A DNA stretch of 62,052 nt from Harriotta raleighana (Eukaryota), in the NCBI GenBank assembly GCA_050575255.1, contig JBNZDD010013691.1:1415961-1478012 (forward strand), read 5' to 3'. The position numbers and the translations under genes were made by a program. Of this stretch, positions 6,801-48,800 are shown piece after piece. The notes beneath the pieces were generated by a model, which saw only the letters and a list, made by a program, of their open reading frames with translations, did no database searches and was not told the origin of the DNA. The stretch's first letter is position 1, and every line of letters starts with the position of its first letter.

Positions 6801-9800
6801 CCGTAGTTTGTGTCCATTCCTGCACCAGGCTCCAGCAATCTATCACCACAGTTCTTCCCCTAATTCACTTGCTCTCATTCCTCAGTATAACGTGTACAAA
6901 ACCCTTATTCTTACGGTCAATGCCTTCCACAGTCTTGCTCTCACCTTACCTCTCCAACCTCATTACCCAATATCAGTCTGTTTGCTCCCTCTGCTCCCTC
7001 GATGGACACTTCAGGTCCCCCACACTTCAAAGCCCCACCGTTGTCGGTCGGGCATGCAGAATCTTTGTCCCCAAACTCTGGAACTCTATCCCAGAATCCC
7101 TCCGCCTCACACCTCCCTTGCCTCCTATAAGTTCTGTCTGAAGTCCTTCCTCTTCAACTGTGCTTGCAGTCACCCGCCCACCCCATCACTTCTGCCCTCC
7201 TGCCCTTCTGACACCAAGTCCCAGCTCTGGTCCAACCACTTGATCAACCAGCTCCCTGGGACATCTTTCTGTCATGAAAGGCGCTACACAAGTGTAATTT
7301 GTTGTTGTATACAGGAAGTGAATGTAGCATGGCTTCATGCTCAAAGTGAGCATGAGAAAATGAAGTTTTCTTGTGTCAGAAGTAGAAATGTATTGTACGT
7401 AGAAATTGCTGGTCCACAGGCAAGTCAATTACAAGTGAATCCATACTCTGGTGAGGACTTAATATTGCTGATGACCTGTAATTCTTGTTCAGAGTAAAAT
7501 TGTTTGTTGCACATGCTTTTTGCTAAGATTTAAGCTCTTACGTTTTTGTTGATGTTCACTGGCCAGTGTAGAAGTGAGTGATGTGGATGAGAAAAGACCC
7601 CATTCTCATCCCCAATGTGTGCAGAATTGGTTGATTTTGACTGGGCAGCAGTAGGGATGCTGTCATAACCTGAGTGATGCTGCCCTAGAAGAGGATTAAA
7701 CAAGCCATGGCTGCCCAATGACCTCAACTGAATATTGTCCTTGTGGGAATATTGCATGAGTTTGTTGACTTTCTTTGTTTGGGCCCACACATTAAAATGC
7801 TGAGTGAGGTACTGATGCCTCTCGAAACACACTGTTATAAAGTGAACACAGATGCATGCCTTTCTGCACTTCATTCCAAACTGCAGGCACTTTTCTGTGT
7901 GATAGTTAAATTGTTTGTTGAATCAATTCACTGTTTTGGCCCTTCTTTCGCAGGCCGTTTGACACACGCTACAGCACAACGGAGAAAGGGCAGATTTTAA
8001 CCATTCTCAGTGTTGAAGACACAGACAATGGTGTGTACTGTTGTACTGCCAACAATGGTATCGGGACCCCTGTGCAAAGCTGTGGGGCTTTACAGGTTAA
8101 AATGAGTAAGTTTCACACCATTTTTTACTTTACCTAACTCCAACAACAGTAGGTTTGCACAGCATGGTCAAAGCTTCATTCAGTGAACATAATAATAATC
8201 CTTGCATTTGATACAGCATCTTATCTTGCCATCAAATGTCTCAAAGTATTTTGTAGTCAAACCCAGCAGGCAATTTGTCCACACCAATGTGCTACAAACA
8301 GCCTTCATAAAGTGAACGATCAGTTCTATCTGAGGGAGAAGCTCTTTTCTCTTTTCAAACACTACCATGGGATTACCAATGTCCGCCTGGACAGGCAGAC
8401 AGAATCTTGGGTTTAACATCTCATCCAAAGGATGGCACCTCTGACAATGCACTATATTGGAGTGTCATCTTAGACTTTAACTCTGCCCCCAATCTCTGGA
8501 ATTCCTTCCCACCATCCGTCCTCCTTGCCCCCTCCCTAGCCTCCTTCAAGTCCCACCTCAAGATCCTCCTCTTCGACAGTTCCATTAGTCAACGCCCCTC
8601 ACTTCCCTCCACCCTCTCAACTTCAGCTTGCGTCTGAAACACTGAAACACAACCCCTTGGGCATTCACTCGATGTGAAAGGTGCTATACAAATGTAATTT
8701 TGTTGTTGTTGTTATTGCTGCTAGTCTTGATTTGTGTGGTTAATTAGCTTTCAATTGGGTCAACAATTATGTTCATTAATAAGTGAACTACTTTGATGGT
8801 CTATTGCTTGTTTACTTGAGTTTTCAGGTCCAAAATAATTCCCTCTCACGATTTTCTCCCTTTTAAGTCATAAAAAATGGACTCTACATAAAAAAAAATA
8901 TTTTGTGGATAAAAATGACTATAATGGTCCTTAAACATGTTTATTTGTTTAAAATATTTGCTGGTATCCTGAGTATAATGCATAGTTCCTCTATAGAGTC
9001 ATGTAGCTCAGTGTTTAGAGCACTCGCCTCACAAGCAAGAGACCTGGGTTCTATTCCCAGCAGGGTGAAATGTTGGGCAGATTTCCCCACACCTCTGTTT
9101 ACATAACAGTAAGTAGGAATCTGTTTGTTAGTTATCTTCTGTCTGGGGAAAATAATCTTTTTTTAAAAAAGTAACAATTTTGTCATTCAATCAACAGCTG
9201 TTTGTGGGACTCTGCTGTGCGCAATTGGCTGCCGTATTTCGCCCACACAAATGCAGTCAATTCACTTTACAGTATATTCTGTGAAGCGCTTTGAGACACC
9301 TAGAAGACATTAAAAGTGCTATATCAAATGCAAGGATTATTATTATTCCTCTTTTTCGTGTTCGTAGAACCAAAAATCACTCGACCACCTACTGATGTGA
9401 AAGTGCTGCTGGGATCAAAGATTGTGCTACCATGTGGAACAATGGGAAATCCCAAACCAGCCATTTCGTGGATCAAGAATGAGGTTGCACTGAAGGTAAG
9501 ACAATAAGCAATCTCCACAGCTCTCTAAATACACACTCGACCCACATGTTGAGCAGGTGGAAAATTATCTGATTGACATGGCTAATTGGGATTGTCTTTG
9601 TTACATTTGCTTTTGGTGGTAAGCCTGGTTTCCTGAGGCTACCAATGTATCTCCTGGCTGCGGAAACTGGGGAGCTCGGAAGCTCAGAGCAATGTACTGT
9701 CACATACCCACCAAAGGAGAGATTATAATAATATGATCTTTTCACTTGATATACAGTATCTCCTTGTTGGAAGTATCTCAAATAGCTTCAGAAATGTTCA

Positions 9801-12800
9801 CCTTATAATGAAGGCGAGAGCAGGCACATTTGTAAGCGAGAGCAGTTTCCAATATGTGGACTGGATGGTGCAGTAATGTCCTACACACAGACATGAAGTG
9901 AATCCAAATTGTATTTTGGGAATTGTTGGCCACGATATGGGGAGAAACTGGGTGAGGTTAGGATTTAATCTGGGTCAAGATTTACTCTATTGATGTAGCA
10001 TTAAGAGTTCAAAGTCCCAACTTGAGTTTAATCACACAATATTCTGAGTCAGAGGTGAGAGTGCTACCAACTGAGCTAGTCTAGTAAATTGCTCTTGGGT
10101 TCGGTTCTATTTATGTAGCATTTTTAGAGATTCCAGAATTATACTTTTTTTTAAATGTAGCTTGAATTGTGAAGCCAGTTTTCTTTAAGTTTCCCATAAG
10201 AACTATAGAAAAATGATTTCTGCATTGGATGCATGGGCACCCAGATTGGAATAGTGATGTTAATGTTGATGCTCTGATACCAGAGAATGGTTTGAAGCTT
10301 GAATAATTCACTTAACGTAGGAAAAGGAGGAAGAGTCATACAGTTATTCTTATGCGGACAAAGGAATAACTTATCAGAAATAGCTCTTTAAAATGGTCCC
10401 ATGGTAACAATTTAATAGGGGATTGAATAAATACTTAAGGAAAAATAATACGAGTATTTAAGGACTGAGGAATGAAGTAGAGGAGATCAATCACTCCACC
10501 GGGACACTTTGCAGCATCAAAGATACAATGAACCAAATGACCTCCTTCAATGCTGTAAACATTCTATGAAGCACAATTGACAGTAGCTCATCCACAGCAA
10601 GAGTAATTGAGAAAGAGAATGCAAACCTGGTCAGTTTGACTGGATTTAACTCAGAAACAGTGTTACCCCCACCTACTCAACCAGCAAAACAGTGGAAGGG
10701 ATTTTACTTAGGAATCATGAATAGCAAAGAAACATTTTGAGCAGTTTACTAAGATTGATTTAGTTACACAAACATCCAAAACTATTTATATAATTGTGGA
10801 GACTCAGTATATTAAGGATTTATATCACTAGTGTGAGGGAATCAGATCGCTGAATACATTTTTCTCTTGCAATAGTCTTTCGGTGCACAATTTATCAATT
10901 TCAACAGCTGGAACTAATTTCCTTCTCCCTTTGGCTTCAAAAGCTGCCTTCAGGTAATGCTCAGAGACTATATTAACAGATTCATTCCTTGCCGGGATTT
11001 TTATCGCTGTGGCAAACTGGGGCTGTAACTATAAATGTATTTTAAAATAAACAAAATGGAAAGGAGATGAAATGAGTAAGTGGTGTTCTTGTTACTGGTA
11101 GCTTGCAGTAGGGCTGTATAAGGGCACTGGTATTATTAATTTATATTATTGTAAATACTAAGAGAGTTATGCTTTCAAGGAGATATAAATTTAAAGTAAC
11201 TACAGGGTACAATAAAACACTATCTATCCATAAATTTAATCTCCACCAACAGGATGTTAATAGTGAAGGAAGTGAATAGACTGTGAATGCTGGAAAGGTG
11301 AAATAGAATCAGGAAATGATGGATATCTATAATAAAAAATATGAAATATTGGAAATCTGTAATAGGCTGTTCAGCAACTGAAAGCGAGAAATAGGTTAAA
11401 GTTTTTGCTTTTACCATTCATCAGACCAATAATGTCCTGGCCAAAAAACTTGCTTACAAAATATTTATTACACTTCACATCATATGAAGCGTTTTGAGTT
11501 GTCCTCCTGAAGTGAAAGGGATTCCATTCTGGAACTCCATCCCACAGTCCCTACGCCTCGCTCCCTCCCTCACCTCCTTCAAGGCTGGTCTCAAGACCCT
11601 CCTCTTTTACCATGCCTTCTCTGGCCGTCCCAACTCTCTCCCTCCCCTCCTAACTCTCTCCTGCCCCTCCACCTCATCCTGCCCCTCTCCCTTGCTTGGG
11701 TCCCGACCTGACTGTTCAGCGCCTTGGGATGTCCTCCTGACGTGAAAGGCTCTCTATGAATGTAATTTTGTTGTTGTTATATCAAATCCAAGGTTATTAC
11801 TATTAATTGTGATAAGCAGCATTTTTACCTCAAAGTTTCTTAAGAACTTTGTTTCTGAATCAGAGTCAGATGCATAATGATGTTAATTCCATGTGTAGCA
11901 GGACTATCCTCGAACTTCCATATTGGAGTCTGGAAACTTAAGAATCCGCAGTGTTCAACTGGAAGATGCAGGACAGTATCGCTGTATGGCCAGAAACAGC
12001 CTGGGATTGGAGTATTCCAGATCTGTCACAGTGGAAGTGCAGGGTAAGTCTGCTATACAATGTTCCAAATGATTGTGCTTTCTGGGACTAGAAATACCGG
12101 GAGTGAAAAACGTGACTTGTGATGTAATAATTATCATTGGCAAGAATTATCGCATTGCACAATATATTTTCTCAGCCTGTAGCACATTTCACTCTCCTCA
12201 ATAATCTGTAAGAGTATCTCATTCATCTATGTCCTACGAGCACCCGAGTAAATGAGGGTGAATAAGAGACAGATAACTGATCGCATCAATCCATACACCT
12301 CACCCAATAATTCTAATAGTGCAAGTTTTACTTCAGATCAAGTTCCAGGAACAGTCATTGATGGTCTTGTGGAAAAAAATCCTTAGGTCTCCTGAAGTCA
12401 TTCTTAAACCTAACCCTAAAGATTAAGTTTCTAGGAAGGGTGGTTGAAGCCTTTCTTCCCGAAATGTTTCTACATCTCAGTGCAAAAAGATAGACATTTA
12501 CAAAGCAGCTTGATACTTTGATGAGGATGGTAGCATGGATATTCTGGAGAGTGAGATAGGATAGGTCAAATGGCTTTCTTTCTTCAACCAAACTGATCTT
12601 GTGCTCTTATGCCATTGTGATGGTGAATTGCTAGCAATTAAAATACAACACTTCACAAAGTTTCTCATGAACACTTGGCATTCTTGCATTGCACTACAAT
12701 CCAATCCACCTGAAAATCAATAGCCGGTGAGGGTATTGCCTGCATAAGGCTTAACGCAGTACTGTCTGTTAATGTGGTTGTTCTATTTGCATGACAAATC

Positions 12801-15800
12801 ATTTTCAGATATTTATTTGCTTTTTTCTATTTGTTGTGCAGATTTTAATATGACAAATGCAACAGAAAGAGGTATTTTGCAACTAAATAAGGCCAAAAAA
12901 AATGCATGTCTGCTTGCTTCTAATACATTAGATTCAAGTTAATAGGAACTCTGTTGAGAGGAACATTTAGGAAGCAGTGATGTTCAGTCCAGGCCCAGGT
13001 TCAATTTTCTATACATTGTGTAATAAATAACGGAACATGAGGAGTATTTTGCTCAACACAGAACTGTTCCCAATAAGAGGTTTCTACAATGTTGCAATAA
13101 TCAAAGCGTAGCTCACCTTGAACAAGCTTTGCAGGGGAGCAATTCCACCAGGGTCTCCATTTACTCTAGGTAGAATGGTAAAATGCCAGATATTTTAAAA
13201 TTTTGAAACTGGTTATACATACCTGCTTTTATGTCCAACTTCCCTCCCTCCCTTCCTCCTTCCCTCCCTCCCTCCCTCACTCAGTTTAACATTGTGCTTC
13301 TTGACGTGTCTACTGCACATTACTAGGTGAGCTTACAACCATTTTGTCCCATTCTCTGCCTTTGATTTGCCCCCTCCCCACTTTTAAATCCTAACTTAAG
13401 ACTGTTTTAACATGCTTTTGATCATCTTCCAGGGCACCCCCACTTCATCCCTTTACACCTCCTCTCTCCTACCCCAGGGTGCCCAGTCCGCTACGTGTAA
13501 CTTATCTGAGACGCCGCCCGGCATGGAGAGCACTATATAAATCAAAGTTGTTGAAGTTGTTGTTATAAAGCACTTTGAGATATTCTCCCAACATGAAATG
13601 GCTACAAATATAAATTGTATTGTGTTTTGTATTTTATTTTAAGAACTACAAAAACTGATTTCAAAGTTAAGACTGAATTCAACAATTTGCCATATTCTGG
13701 ATGCTCGAAATGCACCAGACAGAGAGTAATACAATAACAAAATAATCAATCAAAATCTAGGTAAACCTTCTGCCCATGTGCTTTCTATCTGTTACTGCTA
13801 AAGGGTGTTATTTTTTCCAAAGAATGCTGTATGAAATTATGGACTGTAGTTTGTGCATAACCATTTAGAGTTTGCATGATGTACTCAGTGTACTGAACAC
13901 TTTAGACTTACTCACTTTCCTCCCTACACCAATTTATGTTGGCGTCTGTGGGTTCTCTCTATCTGTTTAGGCCCTTCTTCCCTAAATATTTCTACATCTC
14001 AGTGCAAAAAGATAGCTGCTGTGAAGGTGTAATACCATTCATTGATCTCATTGCATTGTGGACATTGTAATGGCTTTGCAATAAATGCTTGACAGCCCAA
14101 GTGAAATAACTCAGTAGAAGAGCACAGGGAAAAAAGACAGAAAACAGACAGGATCATGGACATGTTGATAATATCACCCACGTTTGTCTGTTCCCCAATA
14201 GCAATAACAACAAAATTACATTTGTATAACGCCTTTCACATTGGAAGAATGTCCCAGTGCACTGGACAAACACTATTTCGGACCCAAGCTGAATAATAAT
14301 TGATTGACTGAGACATTTTGTGGACATTGCAGCCTTTGAGAACACCACTTCTTGATTGTTGACTCCTCCAATCAGATTTTCTTCACGTTAAATAGGAAAA
14401 GGCAGCAATGGAAAATGAGGCTGTTTCAGAGACAACAGGTTAACGTGTTGCACTGCCTCTGCAGCATCTAGATCAAAGTGCGTGTCATTACCATGAAATT
14501 CCCCAATGACCTAGTGGATAAACGCAATGCCCAATGCTAACATTATTGATACGGTCACAGATTTGATACTGATTTAGTTAATCTCAGTTTGGATGGAAGG
14601 CAGTTCTGTGCTGCAAGAAAATTAAGCAATGTTCTTACTCCTCCTGCTCACTATCACGTGACACAATCAATGCACAATTACAATGTGAGATAAGATTCAG
14701 CTGTGATATCCACTAAAACCAAAAGTAATTAAAATCTATTGACATCAAAGAAAGGACAGAAAATTAGTGAAGAAACTATTGCCAAGAAGAGAAATGGGCC
14801 ACTGACAAAAACACCGATTCCACCCTCAGTAGGAATTAAACCTGTTACTCCTCAAAAAATATACAGTAAACGCCTGGTAATTTGTCATCCCAAGGGAAAA
14901 GGGCTCAACAAAGGGTTTATTGGGAGTGGTTATGTGGTCATAGGTACTGCTGGGACCTGTGCCTGGCATGGGCAGAGATTGGGCATACATGCTCAGAGGC
15001 ATCACAGAGGTCTCTAGTCTATTTGAGGGTCGCATTGCCCCCACAAACCGTCCAATATATCCTGCCTCATGATAGGACAAGAGGTGGGACAGGCTGCCAT
15101 GGCACTGCCCTCCAATAGACCAGAGGCCTTTGCGATGCATGTGAGCATGTACTTCCAACCTTTGTTAAATGTCCACAGGATAGGGCAGAAATCCTCTGTA
15201 ATCCAACACACCATTTTATAGGATGAGTTAGCTGAAGTAGTACTATACTTACAAGAATTTCTAGAATGCAACAACAACAACAATTATAGCTCCTTTCTAC
15301 AGTTGAATGTCAACCAGACCGAGGCCCTCCTGATTGGCTTGCGTCAGCGTCTTCACACCTCAGGCACTGGCAGCATCAACCTCTATGGTTGCACACTCCA
15401 CCTCACCAAGCCAGTCAGGAACTTAAGTGTCTTGTTCGATCCTCAACTGTCTTTCCTACCCAACATCCAAGCCATGACCCGCTTTGCCTTCAATCACCTC
15501 TGCAACATTGCCCGACTCCGTCTCTACCTCACCCCTCAGGCCGCTGAAACTCTCATTCATGCCTTCATCACATCCAATCTTGACTACACGCTGCTTGTCA
15601 GCCTTCCATGTAAGTGTCGACTTAAAATGTAAGTCCTATTAAAGTTGATCTAATTTATGTATTCTATCAGCTAAAAATAATATTTCACTGTCACTGGGCT
15701 AATTGATTAATTTCTAATTGACTATTCCAAACTTAGAATAATCCCTCCAAAAAAAACCACAGAAACAAAAATTAGTCATTTCTATCCACGACTGTTTGTG

Positions 15801-18800: not shown

Positions 18801-21800
18801 AATTAAACCTCAGTTAAAGACTGCCCTTCCCAAGGCTTAATTGAGGAATCCTGCCTCAGACCCTGTTATTGTCTGACAAATAAATTGTTTTCATCCCTGG
18901 GGCTTGCTGGATACATTTCAGAAACGTTTGTCTCCGATTCTTTGATATTAACCCCTCAGCCTTGCCTGACAACTCCACACAACCCACCCCCCCCCCCACC
19001 CACCACACACACTCAATTGCGTGTGTTTTGTAGTGAAGCCAGTCATTACATCACTGGTAGAGAAGCAGAATGAATCATTATTAACCCAGAGTCACTAATA
19101 TTCCCTGGTGAAAGTAATCATGAATAATCCGCTGCCTTGGCAGAGCTTGCTCTACATCTGCTTTAAGTATCAGTACTGATTGCATGACACACAGAACATG
19201 GGATTTCACTGTCACCACTTACCCCACCAACAACAACACATTGAATTGTCAAATGCAGCCTCATACACTGGGCCAGATTGAGAATCTACACTGTTTCAAC
19301 TCAATGTTGAAGGATTACATCAGCCACACCACACACACCACACCAGACAAGAGGTTTGACATCTGTGTGGTGATCATGTCAGTCCCCTGACATCATGAGT
19401 TCAGAACATCAGTTGCTCTGCAAGTTGCATCTTCCTTAAATCATCGGTAATTTATTCCCTGGCACAATCAATTATTGGCAGAACAAATTCTTAATTTAAT
19501 TTTTCATAAAAGCACGCTGTACATTTTTCTGTGGTGCAGTGCGGTGCGCTGTGGTGTGGTGTTATTGGAGATGAATTGTTATTAAAGTAGAAGATATGAG
19601 TGTCCTGTCTACCATTCCACTGACAAACCTGCACATTGCTCCCATGGTTTGATTAACAACTTTGCTTCTGATGTTGGCCGATAACTCTGTTTCACTGTTG
19701 TGCTGGAAGGTTTCTCACTCTAATGTGCTTCTTGTCTTTTCATGGCGATAGAAGGAAATGAAACTCTGCAGGAAATCAAAGGTATCCTTGATTCATTTGT
19801 TATCAGTGTTTCTTGTAAGATTTTTAATGCCAGACCAACTCTGTGCCTTTCAAACACTTTTTGATCTTGTTTATTGGGATGGGTATTTCATAAAAAAGTA
19901 ACTTAAATCAGGACCCACCTGAAATATGCTTAGCCCAAATTGAACTCTGAATAAATTTAACTTAAGGTTAAGAACTGAATAAATGGATATATAACTATTC
20001 AATCCACCAACACTCCCCATACTGAAACATAGACACATAGTTGGCAATGGCATTGTAATGGATAATGTCACAATTGAGAGAATTGGATACCTACCTACCA
20101 CTACATAACCACTGGGATTCAAACCAACATAAAAGCATTAAAACATTCGGGTGAGATATTATACTGAGGTACCACCTGTGCCTGTTCATATGGATATCAT
20201 GAAGCCCATGATATTGTTTGTTTAAGGAGCATTTCTGTGCACAAATTGACTTTGAGTTTCATCTACAAAATACACAGTCACTACACTCTACAATGAAAGC
20301 TACACTAAATATAAGGATTTTAATTATTATTTAATAGCACAGAGATTGCTGGTTTAACCGTTGCATAACTTAGCTCAAGAGACAAATTGAATGTCATATT
20401 CAAATTAATCCAAATTAGATCACTGCTTTATATTGCAGAGAAGACCTGCATCTGGCTCAATTTTCCATAACATTACCTGTTTCTGCATTCATAAGGCTTG
20501 TTTGCTTTTTTTTTTGCCTTTATGAATGGCTGACATCTGCAGCTAGAACACAGTGACAAAGGCAAATAGCAATCCTTATATTTTTTTAAATTAAGCAATA
20601 ATAGTCCTTACATTAAATATAGCATGTTAGAAGGACGCCTCAAGTGCTTCACGGGATGTACTGTAGAGTGTATGTTGTGTGGGCAGCCAATTTATGCACA
20701 GCAATGTCCACAAAGAGTCTTCTCAAACATTACTATGGGATCTTCAACATCCACCTGAACAGGGAGACAGATGCTTGGTTTAACATCTAATTTGAAGGAC
20801 GGCACCTCCAACAATGCAGCACACCTCCAGCACTGTATCAAATGCAAATATTATTATTGCTTTAATCTATCCCATTCTTTAATCCAGTTCTAATCTGCAT
20901 CAGAATATATTACATCTGCTGCAGAGAAGTTCAGGTTCATTTATAACATGATTGGATTGTGGACTTTGATATTTGCTTACCTGAAAATCAAATCTGTGCC
21001 ATCCAAATCCCACGATTGTGGAAAAAATGGTCAACTTGCAACCCATCAGATGTCCACTAATATCTTTTCCTGTGGGCTATATACACACACTATGCATATA
21101 AAACACTTCTGATGCCATTTGGCCATGGTAGTGATGTCAGCATCACTTTTTGCACACAATGTGCAGGAATTGACATTGGCAGCAAATCCTTGCTGAACAA
21201 TGGGCAAGAAATGACATCAATGACAACCTGACAACCTGGAAATCACCATTTTATTGTGCCTCTTTATAATGTGAGATCTGACACATTATCCACAAGCAAT
21301 CATCTTATGAGTGAGTGAATTCGCTTTATAATACAGGACCTCTGATTCTTCTATTAGATGCATAACAAGTGTCGCAATCCTTCAGAAGGAAGTGACAGAA
21401 AATATACATCTGTGACAAATATAGCGTGAATGGCAAGCTTGAATATTCATTGCATGGGCTAACTATTTAGCTTGTACTTGACAACTTGATGAAGCTTAAA
21501 ATCTGTACAATATGTTTTGGTGAACTTCTTCCCAGCCACAGCACCCCTAGTGGCCATGGAGGACTTGTGTCTATAAAGTCATTCCAGATATAGTCATTAA
21601 ACTCTTCTTCCTTGGAGTGACGATATATTAACAACAATAACAAAATTACATTTATAGAGCGCCTTTCACATCGGGAGGACAAAATTCCAATGGTATAGCG
21701 CCTTTCATGTAAGGTGCTGGACTGTCAGGAATTTGGTCCTGAGCAAGTGGGGTGAAGGGTGAGAGGTGTTGAGATGAGTGAGGGTGGAGGGTAGGGAGTG

Positions 21801-24800: not shown

Positions 24801-27800
24801 GCCTCAATCCAGTTCAGTTTGAATTTAAACGATATTTCAGTACAACCCCGTTATGGCATGATTGTATGTTCCAGTGTCTTAACAGCTGTGAAATCAATGT
24901 CCAGGTAGTCAGGTTGCTACTGCCGTTTCTTCTGGTGGCGTTCTTTGTATCTACACGTGCTGGAAATAATTTTAATACTACTCACTGTGCACGCATGCAA
25001 TGAACAGGAAACAAAATCAGTGGTGACATAATAATCCCCAAATCGAGATTTTATAGCACCTTATATCTGTGGAGCCCTGTAGCTCAGTGTTTAGAGCACT
25101 CGCCTTACAAGCAGGAGACCTGGGTTCAATTCCAGACAGGGTGAATCGTTGGGCAGGTTTCCTTACTCCACACTCCCAATAATCATCCTTCAAAAAAACC
25201 AATAATAAACAGGTCATTTAAATCCACGACTGTTTGTGGGATGCTGCTGTGCGCAATTGGCTGCTGTATTTCACCCACATATATACAGTCAATTCACTTT
25301 ACAGTACCATATATTCCGTGAAGCACTTTGAGACATCTAGAAGACATGAAAAGCCCTCTATCAAATGCAAGGATTATTATTATCTCTCTGATGACGGTAT
25401 TTATATTTTTAAAAATGAATAGAAACCTTGGGGTGAAAATGCAATGGTTCATAACTTTTTTTAATGTTCTAATTATCATATTTAATCTGTTATAAACATT
25501 GCACTCTGCTTAACCCCTATAAAGCTAAGTATTCTAACACTCCCCCCACCCCCACCCTCTCCATGGCTCAGAAACTAAAGCTGCTGCCAAGAGTGAAACT
25601 GAGCCAAGCAAATTCACTTCCCAGTAGGTGCTGAGTTAGCTGATCTCACCCAAGACAGCAGCAGGAAGAGTAAAATTAGGGCAAGAGTAAACTTTCCCAA
25701 GGTTCTCACTACTACTGACTATTCAGCTACATAAATTGGAAAGTGCACAGGTAACATTGGACGAGTCAGTATCAGGTCTAGTTACTGTGGCAACTAAAGT
25801 CAAACAGTTCACAGGCACATACTCTCCAGGATTATACATTACAAATGATCCTTTTGGTGAGCTATCAAAGGATCAAACTGTAACCCAGCATGAGTCTGTG
25901 TGCGAAAGAAAGTGAGAGAGAGAGAAAAGGGAAGGAAGGTTGGATGGGGAAAAAAGATAACCATTTCTGATATGCAGTACGAAGAGTAAAAAGGAAGGAA
26001 GATTATTAGTTGAGCTTCAGATTGTACAGATTGAATTTCCATGACATGTTATATTCCCATTGTTTCTTGTAGTCCCTGCCAAGATCGTGAAGGCTCCAGT
26101 CTCCCACAATGTCAGTTTTGGTACAGAAGTGATTCTGCGTTGCAAAGCCACAGGTTTTCCTATTCCTACTATAAAGTGGCTGGAAAATGGAAAAACAGTG
26201 AGTGCATTTCCAGCATGTTTCACTTATAAGAATGTTCCATCACTAGATACTTCAGCTCATTTGTTGCGTTTCTCTGCCGTGAGTATGGCATTTACAGAAA
26301 CACATCATCATGCTTAAGAGTATCTAACCTGACTGAGAGTTCCACATAGGTATGCCACCTAATTGTGGGAATTTACATTTGTCTGGAATGGAGTGTGCGC
26401 CCTGCTTCCCTAAACCTGGAATACTTTAAAACTTGGGAACCCACTACGATTTCCCCACAAAGGACTGACTCCCAACATTCCATTGCCCCACTGTTTATTT
26501 TTCCTTCCTCCATCATCCTCCCTTCTCAAGGAGGATAGAGGATAGCACTTTGACTCATAGTCTCATCTTACATTTCACTGCAGTGCTGGGGGGAGTGTTG
26601 TATTGTTGGAAGTATCTTTCCTTGGATGGAAAAATACGCCAAGTTTTAAAAGTTCACCTGTTGAAGTGGATGTAAAAATTCCATGACAAAATGTATAAAA
26701 AGAAGGCAGTTTCTCCAGGGTTAAGAAAGAAAACCACCATCAGAAATACTAACAAGTAATCTGGAATTCCTCCCAATGCTTCATTCTATTCTACGATCAG
26801 AGTCAAGTTTTGAGTCCTATAGCTCAGTGGTTAGAGCACTCGTCTTAGAAGTAAGTGACCTGGGTTCAAAACTTTGGGCAAGTTTCCTTACTCCACATGC
26901 TTACTAATAATCCCTAAAAAAAATAAAAAATTGGTTATTTCAATCCACGACTGTTTGTGGGACAATGATGTATGCAAACGGCTACTGCATTCACCCACAC
27001 AAAATATAGACAATTCACTTTACAATTTATGTGAAGTGCTTTGAGACATCTAGAATACGTTTAGAAGTGTTACATCAAATGCAAGTATTATTATAATCAA
27101 TTCAGCATATTTATTGCTCTCTCCTCACATAGTTAAGTCTAAATCACCTGATCATCTTTTTGCTTTGGAGATGTTGTATTGACTGGTGACCAGGTCAACA
27201 CAAACTGCAGTAATGTGAATATCCTGTGGCCAAAGCAACATCCCAGGTTCAAGTGACTCTGGGACAGATTCCATTGTTCAGTAAATACAAAACCTTCTCC
27301 ACTTCAACCTCAGAATCCACCATGCCTTTAGCACAAAGCTTGTGGTGTAAAACCAGTTTTTTGCCTTTGATTCTCTCCAGGTGCCCCAGGTATCAATACA
27401 GAACAGTATTAAGAGAGACGTAACAGAATCCAAACTTCGCATCTATGTTACCAGACCTGCACTGTTCACTTGCCTGACGAGCAACAAACATCGTGATGGA
27501 ACATCTACAGCAAAAGCCACTGCAATGCTCAGTGTCTCAGGTAGGTTTCAGTCACTATTCATCTTCCCTTTCATTTTAAGACAATCACACCATGCTGCCC
27601 ACTACCATTCATTGTTTAAAGAGGAAAGTCTTCATGAATGAAAGTTTTTGGCAAATGTCTTCAGGTTAACAACCTAATCTTGTTTAGTGAATCATTTGGA
27701 TTACTAGCAGATCATTCATTTCAAAGGCTGTTTGGGATATTTTTGTGCACAAATCGTCGGTTTCATTTACCTCTAAAGTGCTTTTGGTGCTATTTGAAAA

Positions 27801-42800: not shown

Positions 42801-45800
42801 CTGATATTGTGCACAGATCATTTCACTCTGAGGTTCAGGAGGCTAGAGTGATTGCAGGGAGCTGATATGAAAAAGGGATGGTGGAAAGAACAAAACTAAG
42901 ATTTTGGGGGGCCATCAGCCAGGTGTCTGACACATGCGGAAACCCATCATTATGCTTAAGATTATCCAAACTGAGCTGAGAGTTCCATGCATCCCACCCA
43001 CTCATGAAAACCTCAGCGATAGATTGTTGGAAAGGAAGGCACACCCTCTCCCTGGAAGGACACATCCTGTTTACCTAATTCCAGAAAGTATTAGATGCAG
43101 GATGCAGAGTCAAGGCTTGGGTACAGCAGAGTGTGCTTTGGGATACTGCCGGAATATAACCAACCATTGGTATCACTGCCTGGCAAGCTAAGGTGTAACA
43201 CAGTGGTGGCTTTTTGGTATCAATGTATTTCCGTCTCCATTTTCAGGTTGTACAGAGGTGACACGGGCTATTGTAGCACCTATCGAGGTGAAGTGTGCAA
43301 AGGGCTCCTGGAAGAAGGCTCACTTGTTTTCTTCAACTCTTCTTATGCTGACCCGGAGGAGATGCAAGAGATGCTGGCTCGTGGAGCCTGGGCGGAGCTG
43401 GATCGAGTGAACCCGTTGTGCAGGCCGGCTGCAGAATCATTACTTTGCCGCTTTCTGTACCAGAAATGCAATCCCTCTAGGTCAGGGCCTGCTCCTAAGC
43501 CTGTGTGCAGGTAGGACTGCGGCAGAGGCATTGGCTGTGATTTGACAAGTTTACTGTTCATTAACCAAGCTAACAACAACAATGACAACAAGTGCAATTA
43601 TAGCTTAGACCATTTTCTAGCTTAAACGGAGGAGTCACCAGCTCCTCCATCCAATCCTACATGCCTTAGCCATTCTCTACTCAAGCTCTGATTGTGAGGA
43701 AATGCTGGAATTCTTTGAGTCTAAAATTGAGGGGATTTGTTCAGCTGCCTTCACCCTCCCAACCATCACTCCTTCCCCATCTCTCCCCTCACACTCTGAC
43801 CCCTACCCTTCCTTCCCTCCACATTTTCAAACCTGTTTCTCCCTCCTCTCTCATCATCACCATATTCCAATATGAGGCACACCACCTGCTCCCTTAACTC
43901 CATTCCCATCCATCTCCTTACTAACAGCTTTACCTCCTTTCCCCTCTATTCTGACACCATCAATCTCTCCCTTTCATCAGGCACTGTTCCCATCCCCTTA
44001 AATCCCTAGATTCCTGTAGCTCAGTGGTTACGGCACTTGCCTCACAAGCAAGAGATCTGAGTTCGATTCTAGGCAGTGCGAAACCTTGGACAAGTTTCCT
44101 TACTCTACATACCTGAAAATAATCCCTCCAAAAAAACTACAATAATAAAATTGGTCATTTCAATCCGTGACTGTTTGTGGGACACTGCTGTGCGCAATTG
44201 GCTGCCGCGTTCCGCCCACAAATATACTGTCAATTCACTTTACAATATATTCTGTGAAGCGCTTTGGGACGTTGATAAGATGTGAAAAGCGCTATATCAA
44301 ATGCAAGGATTATTATTATTAAACAGAGGCATGTGGAGTAAGGAAATGTACCTAACATTTCGCCTGCCGGGAATCAAACCCACATCCTCTCGTATTTTGA
44401 TGGCTTATTATTTAGGGGCTGAATTGTTCAGAAAAATGCAAAGTAACTTTTTAAAAAAAAATGTAAAACTGTATTGCATTTAGTACTGGACCATTCTTTC
44501 TTTCTTCCAGAGAGCACTGTCTGGCAGTGAAAGAACTCTATTGTTACAGAGAATGGCAGTCCATGGAAGATAACTCACGCAATGGCCTTTATACAGCAAG
44601 TCTGATCCTGACCTTGCCGGACTGCAATCGCCTTCCCAGCATGTACCAGGACCCAGACACGTGCACAAAAGTCTCCTTTCTTGGTAATTACTCCCTCGTT
44701 GAAATGTTAATGGGTTTCAGGTACCCAACATAGCAATTCTTCAGAGCTAATCTCAGTGACTAACTGCAATACACAGTTTAATGAATGACTTCAATGAGCA
44801 AACTGGCAATTTTCTGTACTCAATTAGTTCCTCTTGTGCCCTTTTATCTTTCAGACATGAAGAAAGATCTCATTACCAGTGAGTAAATATGCCCCCTGCT
44901 GCTGTTCACTGCCATGCTGGGAACAGTAAATCAGATATAATTACAGTCGCTGCGTTTGTTGAAAATGTGTGCATAAGATCACATGACATGAATAATCAAT
45001 GCAATCAATACATGACATGAATAATCAATGCATAATGTTTGATAATACTCCTCCACATAAATACATTTTCCTTCCACTTTCCTCCCAGGCTGTTTCTGAA
45101 ACTAAATATAAAATGCAGGGTTTGCAGCACTTGTTTATTTCACCAGCAGCGCTGAGTTTTCGACATCCTCGTCCTCACTTTCAAGGCCATTCACGGCCTT
45201 GCCTCCGCCTATCTCTCTGACCTGCTCTCCCTATCAGCCTGCCCATCCCTTCCATTCAGCGGGCTCTGGNAAATGTACCTAACATTTCGCCTGCCGGGAA
45301 TCAAACCCACATCCTCTCGTATTTTGATGGCTTATTATTTAGGGGCTGAATTGTTCAGAAAAATGCAAAGTAACTTTTTAAAAAAAAATGTAAAACTGTA
45401 TTGCATTTAGTACTGGACCATTCTTTCTTTCTTCCAGAGAGCACTGTCTGGCAGTGAAAGAACTCTATTGTTACAGAGAATGGCAGTCCATGGAAGATAA
45501 CTCACGCAATGGCCTTTATACAGCAAGTCTGATCCTGACCTTGCCGGACTGCAATCGCCTTCCCAGCATGTACCAGGACCCAGACACGTGCACAAAAGTC
45601 TCCTTTCTTGGTAATTACTCCCTCGTTGAAATGTTAATGGGTTTCAGGTACCCAACATAGCAATTCTTCAGAGCTAATCTCAGTGACTAACTGCAATACA
45701 CAGTTTAATGAATGACTTCAATGAGCAAACTGGCAATTTTCTGTACTCAATTAGTTCCTCTTGTGCCCTTTTATCTTTCAGACATGAAGAAAGATCTCAT

Positions 45801-48800
45801 TACCAGTGAGTAAATATGCCCCCTGCTGCTGTTCACTGCCATGCTGGGAACAGTAAATCAGATATAATTACAGTCGCTGCGTTTGTTGAAAATGTGTGCA
45901 TAAGATCACATGACATGAATAATCAATGCAATCAATACATGACATGAATAATCAATGCATAATGTTTGATAATACTCCTCCACATAAATACATTTTCCTT
46001 CCACTTTCCTCCCAGGCTGTTTCTGAAACTAAATATAAAATGCAGGGTTTGCAGCACTTGTTTATTTCACCAGCAGCGCTGAGTTTTCGACATCCTCGTC
46101 CTCACTTTCAAGGCCATTCACGGCCTTGCCTCCGCCTATCTCTCTGACCTGCTCTCCCTATCAGCCTGCCCATCCCTTCCATTCAGCGGGCTCTGGCCTG
46201 TTCCATGTCCCGCCGCCCGAATCGCCCCACCATCGGTGGCCCTACTTTCAGCCTCTCTGCCCCTACACTCTGGAATTCCATCCCACAATCCCTTTGCCTC
46301 GCTTCCTCATTTTCCTCCTTCTCAAGACCTTCCTCTTCGACCATTCCTTCTGCTGCCCTCCTAACTCTCCCCCTTTACCTACTCTTGTTTCCCCTACCCC
46401 AAGCCTTCCCTCCCGCTCGTGTCCCGACCTAACTGTTCAGCATCTTGGGACGTCCTCCTGACATAAAAGGCGCTCTTTAAATGTCATTTTATTGTTGTTG
46501 TTGAATTGTTTTTAAAAGTCAAGTAGAGTTAGACATTGAGAGCTGACGAAGGGTCATGTACCCGAAACATTGACTCAACATTGCTTTTTCCAAAGATGCT
46601 GCCTGACCTACTGAGTTTTCCTAGCATTTTCAGTTTTTGTTTTAGAGTTAATCATTGGCTGGGTCAATAAACATTTGCAACAACAACAACAAAATTATAC
46701 TTATATAATGCTTTGGATCCGAGCTGGAGGTTGGGATTCGGGGAGGGTGGGAAGCAGGGGGATGAAGGAGGGTGAACAAAGGCACGGCCAAAGAGGAGGA
46801 TTTTGAGACAGATCTTGAAAGAGGCAATGCAGGGCATGAGGAGGATGGACTGTAGGGTGTAGTTCCAGAGGGTGTGGCAAGGCAGGGGATGGAAGCAAGC
46901 TGGAACCTGCGGAGAGAGTGGGAAAGTTGGTAGGGAGTTAGGAGTCATAGAGTTTGGGGGGAGCAAGGCCCTGGACGGTTTTAGAGGTGTGTGGTTGGAA
47001 GCCAGTGGACTCAGGCCAGGATGGGTGTGATAGAATAGCATAGGTGTGGGAGAGGACCCGAGCTGAAAAGTTTTGGATGGTCTGCAGCCTATGGAAGGAG
47101 TAGTTGGGAGGCCGACAAGCGGGGAGTTTGAGTAATCGAGCCTGGACGTTATGCACATGAGTGTCTCAGCGGTCTCAGTGGATGTAAGACAGTGGAGGAG
47201 CAGTGCAATGTTGCAGAGGTGGGGAAGGCACATTATGACATGGCATAGATATTTGGTAGAAAGGATAGTTGAGGGTAAAATAAGACACCAAGTTGGATTG
47301 GCTTGGCTCAGAGTATGCATCCTCGAATGGTAATGCTGTCATACGAACATCAGAACAGGAATAGGCTATTCAGCCCTTCAAGCCTGTTCCGCCATTTAGT
47401 TAGATCATGGCTGATTTGTCCGGTAACTAATCCTTTCAATTCCAATTTTCTCTTTCTCCCTATATCCCTTAATATCCTGACCTACCAAAAATCTATGAAC
47501 CTCACTCTTGAAGTTAAGAAGGACCTCAGTCTTGTTGACATTCAGCTGTAGAAAGTTAGTTCTCATCCAGGACTTGATGTCTGGCAGATATTCTTTCAGA
47601 ACAGGCCTTGGAGTTGAGGGTGGAGGCAGAGAGATTCAGTTGGGTATCATTGCATACATATGGAAATTGACGGGAGAGGAATGAGCGAAGCTGGGAAACA
47701 GGACCTTGGGAAGGAAAGGGAGCTTGGAGATGGGGGGGGTAATTTGAGAGCAAGGATGCATCCAGGGAGAGTTTTTTTTATTAAGGCTAGGAGTGATGAC
47801 GGCTGTTTTTAAATGGGTTTTTAAATGGTGCCAATGGATAGAAATTAATGATGTCAGTGAGTAGAGGGGCAAGGAGGTGGAGCTGGGAGGTAAGGAGGTT
47901 GGTAGGGATGGAGGTGAGAGAGCAGATGGTCAGTTTCATCTGTGTTATAGTGGTAATGAGAGAGGTGGGGGAAACAGGTTTGAAGGTGTGGAGGAAGGGA
48001 TGGATAAGTTGATGTGAGACAGATTTTGTGAAACAACCTGCATTAAAACTATAGGCATATATTTCCTGTACATGTAATGTTTAACATAATAAAAATGTTA
48101 AACTATATAGTAGAGCACTTACAAAGAATTGGGTGCAGGAGTTCAGTTTAGGCCGGGCAATGAGCAAATAGACTGCAGTAATGTCCCGCAACTGCCATTT
48201 CACTCACTGGTGGGCGAAGCACTGTTTTCACAATCCCAAAACTCCCTGTGCCAAGCAATGCCCGACTAGAACTTTTCTACTCACATCAGCAGCATCAAGC
48301 AAACAGCGCCAGAGATGCTGGTATGTACAAGTTTGTAGCGGAGGGAGTGTTTATAGCAGAGGAGGGTGTTTGTAGCAGATTACACAGAAAAAGTGCAGCC
48401 ACACTTTTCTATTGGCACAGGTCATTGGCAACTTTAAGATCATTCAACTTCTTGCTGTCTCTTCCTGGTTCTATTCATTACTGCTCAGAATATTTTTGCT
48501 TCAAATGTCAACGAAAACCAAAGGTCAAATGTTGAACTTCATGAACATTCGTTGGTTTGGAGTATGACCAAAAAGACGGAGATTAAAATTGAGCCACACT
48601 GCTCATCTGAAGTTCATTTAGCTGACTTACCTAGGGTATTAAACTGGGTGGATATAATTTCACTGTTGAAATTCACAAACACAGGAACATTACCCTCAGG
48701 AAAATGTTGAACATTCCACATCCTTTGGCATTTCAACATGTTTCCAGTATAGGAACTGTCCACCAAACTGCTGAAGATAGCACAATAATTCCATACTTAA

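Follow-up and report, generated by a model that had tools for sequence, protein, structure and literature searches.

Positions 12842-12871 (forward strand) of the window, the 62,052-nucleotide stretch of Harriotta raleighana DNA analysed here, very probably form an alternatively spliced microexon of MuSK that is probably of jawed-vertebrate ancestry and encodes a predicted flexible, likely N-glycosylated spacer between the second and third immunoglobulin domains (Ig2 and Ig3). This microexon, called cassette A below, is very likely real, but it is an ancient MuSK cassette that is already annotated and known, not new. Its useful point is comparative: an optional insert with two sequons (NMT and NAT) is invariant wherever it occurs in the records of chimaeras, sharks and rays.

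The MuSK host gene and the splice anatomy of cassette A

Residues 1-690 of elephant shark (Callorhinchus milii) MuSK map in order over 761-55411 of the window, with 80-100% identity per exon by tblastn, and Ig1-3, the Frizzled CRD, the kringle, the transmembrane segment and the kinase follow one another in the order of the MuSK receptor tyrosine kinase. The second half of Ig2 is encoded by exon 5 (11899-12043, forward strand), which matches residues 165-209 of human MuSK and, at 94% by tblastn, residues 165-211 of C. milii; its tandem acceptor tagCAG gives a start at 11899 or 11902, and it ends in phase 1 with GG ahead of the donor gtaagt. The first half of Ig3, with a conserved NVS/NVT sequon, is encoded by exon 6 (26073-26197, forward strand), which was placed by protein matches, tblastn and its boundaries; all nine of its nine protein matches are named MuSK, the best being C. 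milii at 90%. A second 30-nt, phase 1-1 microexon, cassette B (19752-19781, forward strand), is the orthologue of the mammalian EESEPEQDTK insert, and tblastn aligns residues 222-231 of C. milii isoform X1 to 19751-19780 with eight of ten residues identical. The order of the four elements was tested, and exon 5 (ending at 12043), cassette A, cassette B and exon 6 (starting at 26073) do follow one another in this sequence. The initial annotation had placed the end of exon 5, the start of the second cassette and the start of exon 6 at these same positions. As both cassettes are 30 nt long and in phase 1-1, any combination of them (neither, A or B for ten additional residues, or both for twenty) keeps the reading frame.

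NAGNAG acceptors occur at 11896-11901 (exon 5) and at 19749-19754 (cassette B, tagAAG). They fit a one-residue gap between C. milii isoforms X3 and X4, and also the 9-aa and 19-aa inserts of capuchin and zebra models. The tandem acceptor of cassette B may, judging from these sequences, be conserved from sharks to mammals.

Cassette A is preceded by a U-rich polypyrimidine tract at 12810-12839 (15 pyrimidines among 20 positions of the scored stretch) and an AG acceptor at 12840-12841, the two together spanning 12810-12841, and is followed by the donor gtattt at 12872-12877, all on the forward strand. Between AG and GT lie exactly 30 nt in phase 1-1, reading ten residues of the form xxN(M/I)TNATER with both sequons; the length, phase and sequons agree with the initial annotation. 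In the catshark gene model GCB64139.1 the translation continues across the cassette A donor as G-I, the same residues as in the window, and this common read-through would fit a conserved GT-AT donor. A look-up of sequencing runs for 9300-13100 of the window listed none with RNA, which counts neither for nor against splicing of the exon. The 34-base string made up of AG, exon and GT has a single occurrence in the 1.1-Gb genome. A further AG lies at 12807-12808, 33 nt upstream of the acceptor, in frame and open, so that a 63-nt form is possible; zebra models X1 and X2 carry 22 additional residues ahead of the cassette A peptide.

A scan of the 14 kb of intron 5 for AG..GT segments of 15-60 nt that are open and in frame returned 432 candidates, among which cassette A alone passes the splice-site filter and alone has two sequons. 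When the intron was resampled 200 times with a composition-matched Markov model, 21% of the resampled sequences contained a candidate that cleared the filter and 27% contained one with two sequons, and in none of the 200 did a single candidate combine the two properties. This test is taken as supporting only, because the filter thresholds were chosen with cassette A in view and the genuine cassette B narrowly fails them. The decisive support, resting on sequence comparison, is orthology to the elephant shark: tblastn places residues 212-221 of C. milii isoform X1 at 12841-12870 with ten of ten residues identical, immediately ahead of the cassette B residues. The same orthology bears out the proposal in the initial annotation of a 30-nt cassette exon at the MuSK Ig2-Ig3 junction, upstream of a second 10-aa cassette, and we regard cassette A as almost certainly a real exon.

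Cassette A in cartilaginous fishes and mammals

The main protein listing comprised the best 120 of 580 matches in order of similarity to a query that carries the insert, which makes it a biased sample, and cluster members were taken at up to 15 per cluster. Together 262 proteins were listed, of which 247 could be parsed across the Ig2-Ig3 junction, the other 15 being mostly fragments or truncated forms. Among these matches, 33 of the parsed proteins have both cassettes, four have A alone, 79 have no insert, 130 have only a B-type insert (129 recognised by pattern and one variant outside the pattern) and one has a 3-residue extension. Cassette A is found in 38 of the 262 listed proteins, 37 of them parsed and one among the 15 unparsed. 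These orthologues come from gene models in databases, most of them predictions (XP_), and some may have been carried over by homology.

Among the matches listed, 13 records from nine of 24 chondrichthyan species contain cassette A, and in all 13 the ten residues are identical to those in the window. The species are the elephant shark, whale shark, two catsharks, two bamboo sharks, a skate and two stingrays. As in the window, C. milii X1 (XP_042188562.1) and the models XP_048476112.1, XP_032874051.1 and XP_038660064.1 have these residues at the same junction, followed by the cassette B orthologue. The C. milii RefSeq isoforms show the behaviour expected of two cassettes, with both inserts in X1, B only in X2 and neither in X3 and X4. 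Models with A alone come, among the matches listed, from a catshark, a skate, a stingray and a bamboo shark, and the relatives' database models thus contain inclusion as well as skipping forms of cassette A. The other 15 of the 24 chondrichthyan species have no cassette A model among the matches listed, the Torpedo cDNA product included, and both this product and a human cryo-EM construct lack A as well as B. Low inclusion, gaps in annotation or true loss may account for the models without cassette A. Unlike cassette A, cassette B varies in sequence among the chondrichthyan records. It bears a third sequon, NET, in the window, as in sharks and rays, whereas C. milii has SET; this sequon is also absent in the coelacanth and in mammals.

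In mammals, 25 records from 16 species contain cassette A among the matches listed, with both sequons kept. The species include camels, elephant seals, panda, stoat, bats, equids, buffalo, ground squirrels, guinea pig and capuchins. The mammalian peptide shares eight of ten residues with the window in 23 records and seven of ten in the two that read ALNITNATER, where the substitution sits at the variable position of a sequon and leaves it intact. The first two residues are AL in mammals and DF in the window. Mammalian 20-aa inserts (XP_034871977.1, XP_032334051.1), which consist of A and an EESEPEQDTK-type B, agree with the window in position, order and sequons, again with eight of ten residues of A. 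In mammals A always occurs with B (25 of 25 listed records), in contrast to the four chondrichthyan models with A alone. The EESEPEQDTK insert of human MuSK isoform 2 has the same junction, length and phase as cassette A, but its orthologue in the window is cassette B, and it is without a sequon.

From the window to most mammals, cassette A is more conserved (8/10) than the better-known cassette B (4/10), with 66-68% identity over the whole protein, and this makes cassette A the best candidate for a real function among the Ig2-Ig3 isoforms. The simplest reading of these sequences would be that it was present in the common ancestor of jawed vertebrates, although the bony-vertebrate records are patchy. 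That ancestor lived some 450 million years ago. Coelacanth records have B or no insert and the milkfish has no insert, cassette A being absent from both among the matches listed. It is likewise absent from the three human records listed (P0050, P0054, P0133) and from the human cryo-EM construct. Other ape and Old World monkey records listed are without it, and two New World monkeys have it; the catarrhine pattern is either loss of cassette A or just isoform sampling. The records listed include no bird, reptile or amphibian, and a search with the insert region alone, which returned eight chondrichthyan proteins among 14 candidates and missed the mammalian orthologues, is uninformative on birds, reptiles, amphibians and teleosts.

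The initial annotation had called the exon unannotated and possibly lineage-specific. Neither description stands, as RefSeq models of the elephant shark, whale shark, catsharks, bamboo sharks, a skate and stingrays include it, and an orthologous peptide with both sequons is present in models of 16 mammal species. A new lineage-specific exon is therefore ruled out by the existing chondrichthyan models together with the mammalian orthologues.

The Ig2-Ig3 joint and the possible role of the insert

AlphaFold models were made of C. milii X4, which has no insert, and of X1, which has both. In X4 (27-row alignment) a single strand at residues 201-218 runs from Ig2 into Ig3 with pLDDT of about 89-90. 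In X1 (38 rows) residues 214-230 have pLDDT below 50 between Ig domains that are mostly at 70-90, and these low values may partly reflect a shallower alignment in the insert. Both models are poor overall (pTM 0.31 for X4 and 0.27 for X1) and were interpreted within Ig1-3. The contrast between them predicts that the cassettes turn a linker-free joint into a spacer of 10 or 20 residues. The sequons of cassette A, three residues apart and additional to the conserved Ig3 sequon, are conserved within a segment predicted as an unstructured linker. The initial annotation had proposed that the exon adds two sequons and lengthens the hinge; the reading frame confirms the former and the predicted spacer agrees with the latter.

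Cassette A likely serves as an optional, putatively glycosylated spacer that loosens the Ig2-Ig3 joint and tunes receptor activation. We infer that it is spliced in this species, that its sequons are occupied by glycans and that it affects signalling. In forms without the cassettes, the last strand of Ig2 is predicted to continue without a break as the first strand of Ig3; in forms that include them, the coupling of Ig3 to the Lrp4-binding Ig1-2 unit would be lost and the distance between the two would grow. Closely spaced glycans on cassette A could stiffen the spacer and add bulk, and a stiff, bulky spacer might raise the threshold for ligand-independent MuSK dimerisation. The effect would be one of fine tuning and not an on/off switch. 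Watty and Burden reportedly found in 2002 that the N-glycans of MuSK restrain its activation, and damping of ligand-independent activation is favoured because of the analogy with this result; as a specific mechanism it is offered tentatively, at somewhat under an even chance.

The joint may matter little to agrin signalling, because Ig3 can be deleted with agrin-induced clustering intact, according to the accessible text of PMC2169478 and PMC10002845. A real exon could act at Ig3, with the spacer tuning access of BMP4 or another Ig3 partner and not the agrin/Lrp4 threshold. The insert adjoins Ig3, high-affinity BMP4 binding is stated in the accessible part of PMC10002845 to need Ig3, which agrin-Lrp4 signalling does not, and PDB 9lgg is a structure of human MuSK Ig3-Fz with a peptide partner; Ig3 folds with or without the inserts in both AlphaFold models, however, and we consider action at Ig3 possible but rather unlikely. 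Slightly less probable still is that the exon affects only folding, trafficking or surface half-life, through ER quality control or protease shielding, or that it is a nearly neutral spacer. This would suit the many species' models without cassette A among the matches listed, as well as the statement, in the accessible text of a review (PMC5855712), that it is not known what functional significance the MuSK isoforms have. Neutrality is difficult to reconcile with the seven to eight residues that are invariant from sharks to mammals, which extend beyond the sequons and exceed the conservation of cassette B and the protein average.

It is highly improbable that the sequence is a pseudo-exon arisen by chance, or that it is conserved within the intron but left unspliced in this species. 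Filter-passing splice pairs did arise in the 21% of resampled introns noted above, and the in-frame AG 33 nt upstream could yield the 63-nt form instead, but annotated exons of nine chondrichthyan species encode a peptide matching at ten of ten residues, and these exons share both the junction of cassette A and its order with respect to cassette B. The optional spacer that tunes activation remains the preferred reading. An extension of it is speculative and on balance doubtful: cassette A as a glycan switch in the hinge of MuSK that is controlled by splicing and has stayed nearly identical since jawed vertebrates arose, to a depth that has gone unremarked. Such a switch would set the activation threshold or BMP access by muscle type or stage, and some lineages, perhaps humans among them, may have lost or silenced it.

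MuSK 60 and a repeated block in the window

MuSK 60 is likely the variant in which cassettes A and B together insert 60 nt, or 20 residues, between Ig2 and Ig3. It is reportedly described as a 60-nt insert by Richman in 2012 and by Kuehn in 2005. The name, and the name alone, was found for a mouse variant in one preprint. That this mouse variant contains cassettes A and B is likely, given the sum of 30 and 30 nt. No mouse record with cassette A is among the matches listed. A full-text literature search did not find the peptide core of cassette A, and the accessible text of PMC4213890, PMC6678492, PMC10968960, PMC10167245, PMC11954543 and PMC2199313 does not describe it. The mouse variant likely to contain cassette A is in use as an antigen, and the insert could change the epitopes of an ectodomain antigen in models of MuSK myasthenia.

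Elsewhere in the window, a 926-base block is present in two identical copies, at 44344-45269 and 45271-46196, separated by a single N at 45270. The repeated block doubles two MuSK exons, namely the second exon of the Frizzled domain and a short one that reads DMKKDLIT, and it is likely an assembly overlap artefact and not a genuine exon duplication.
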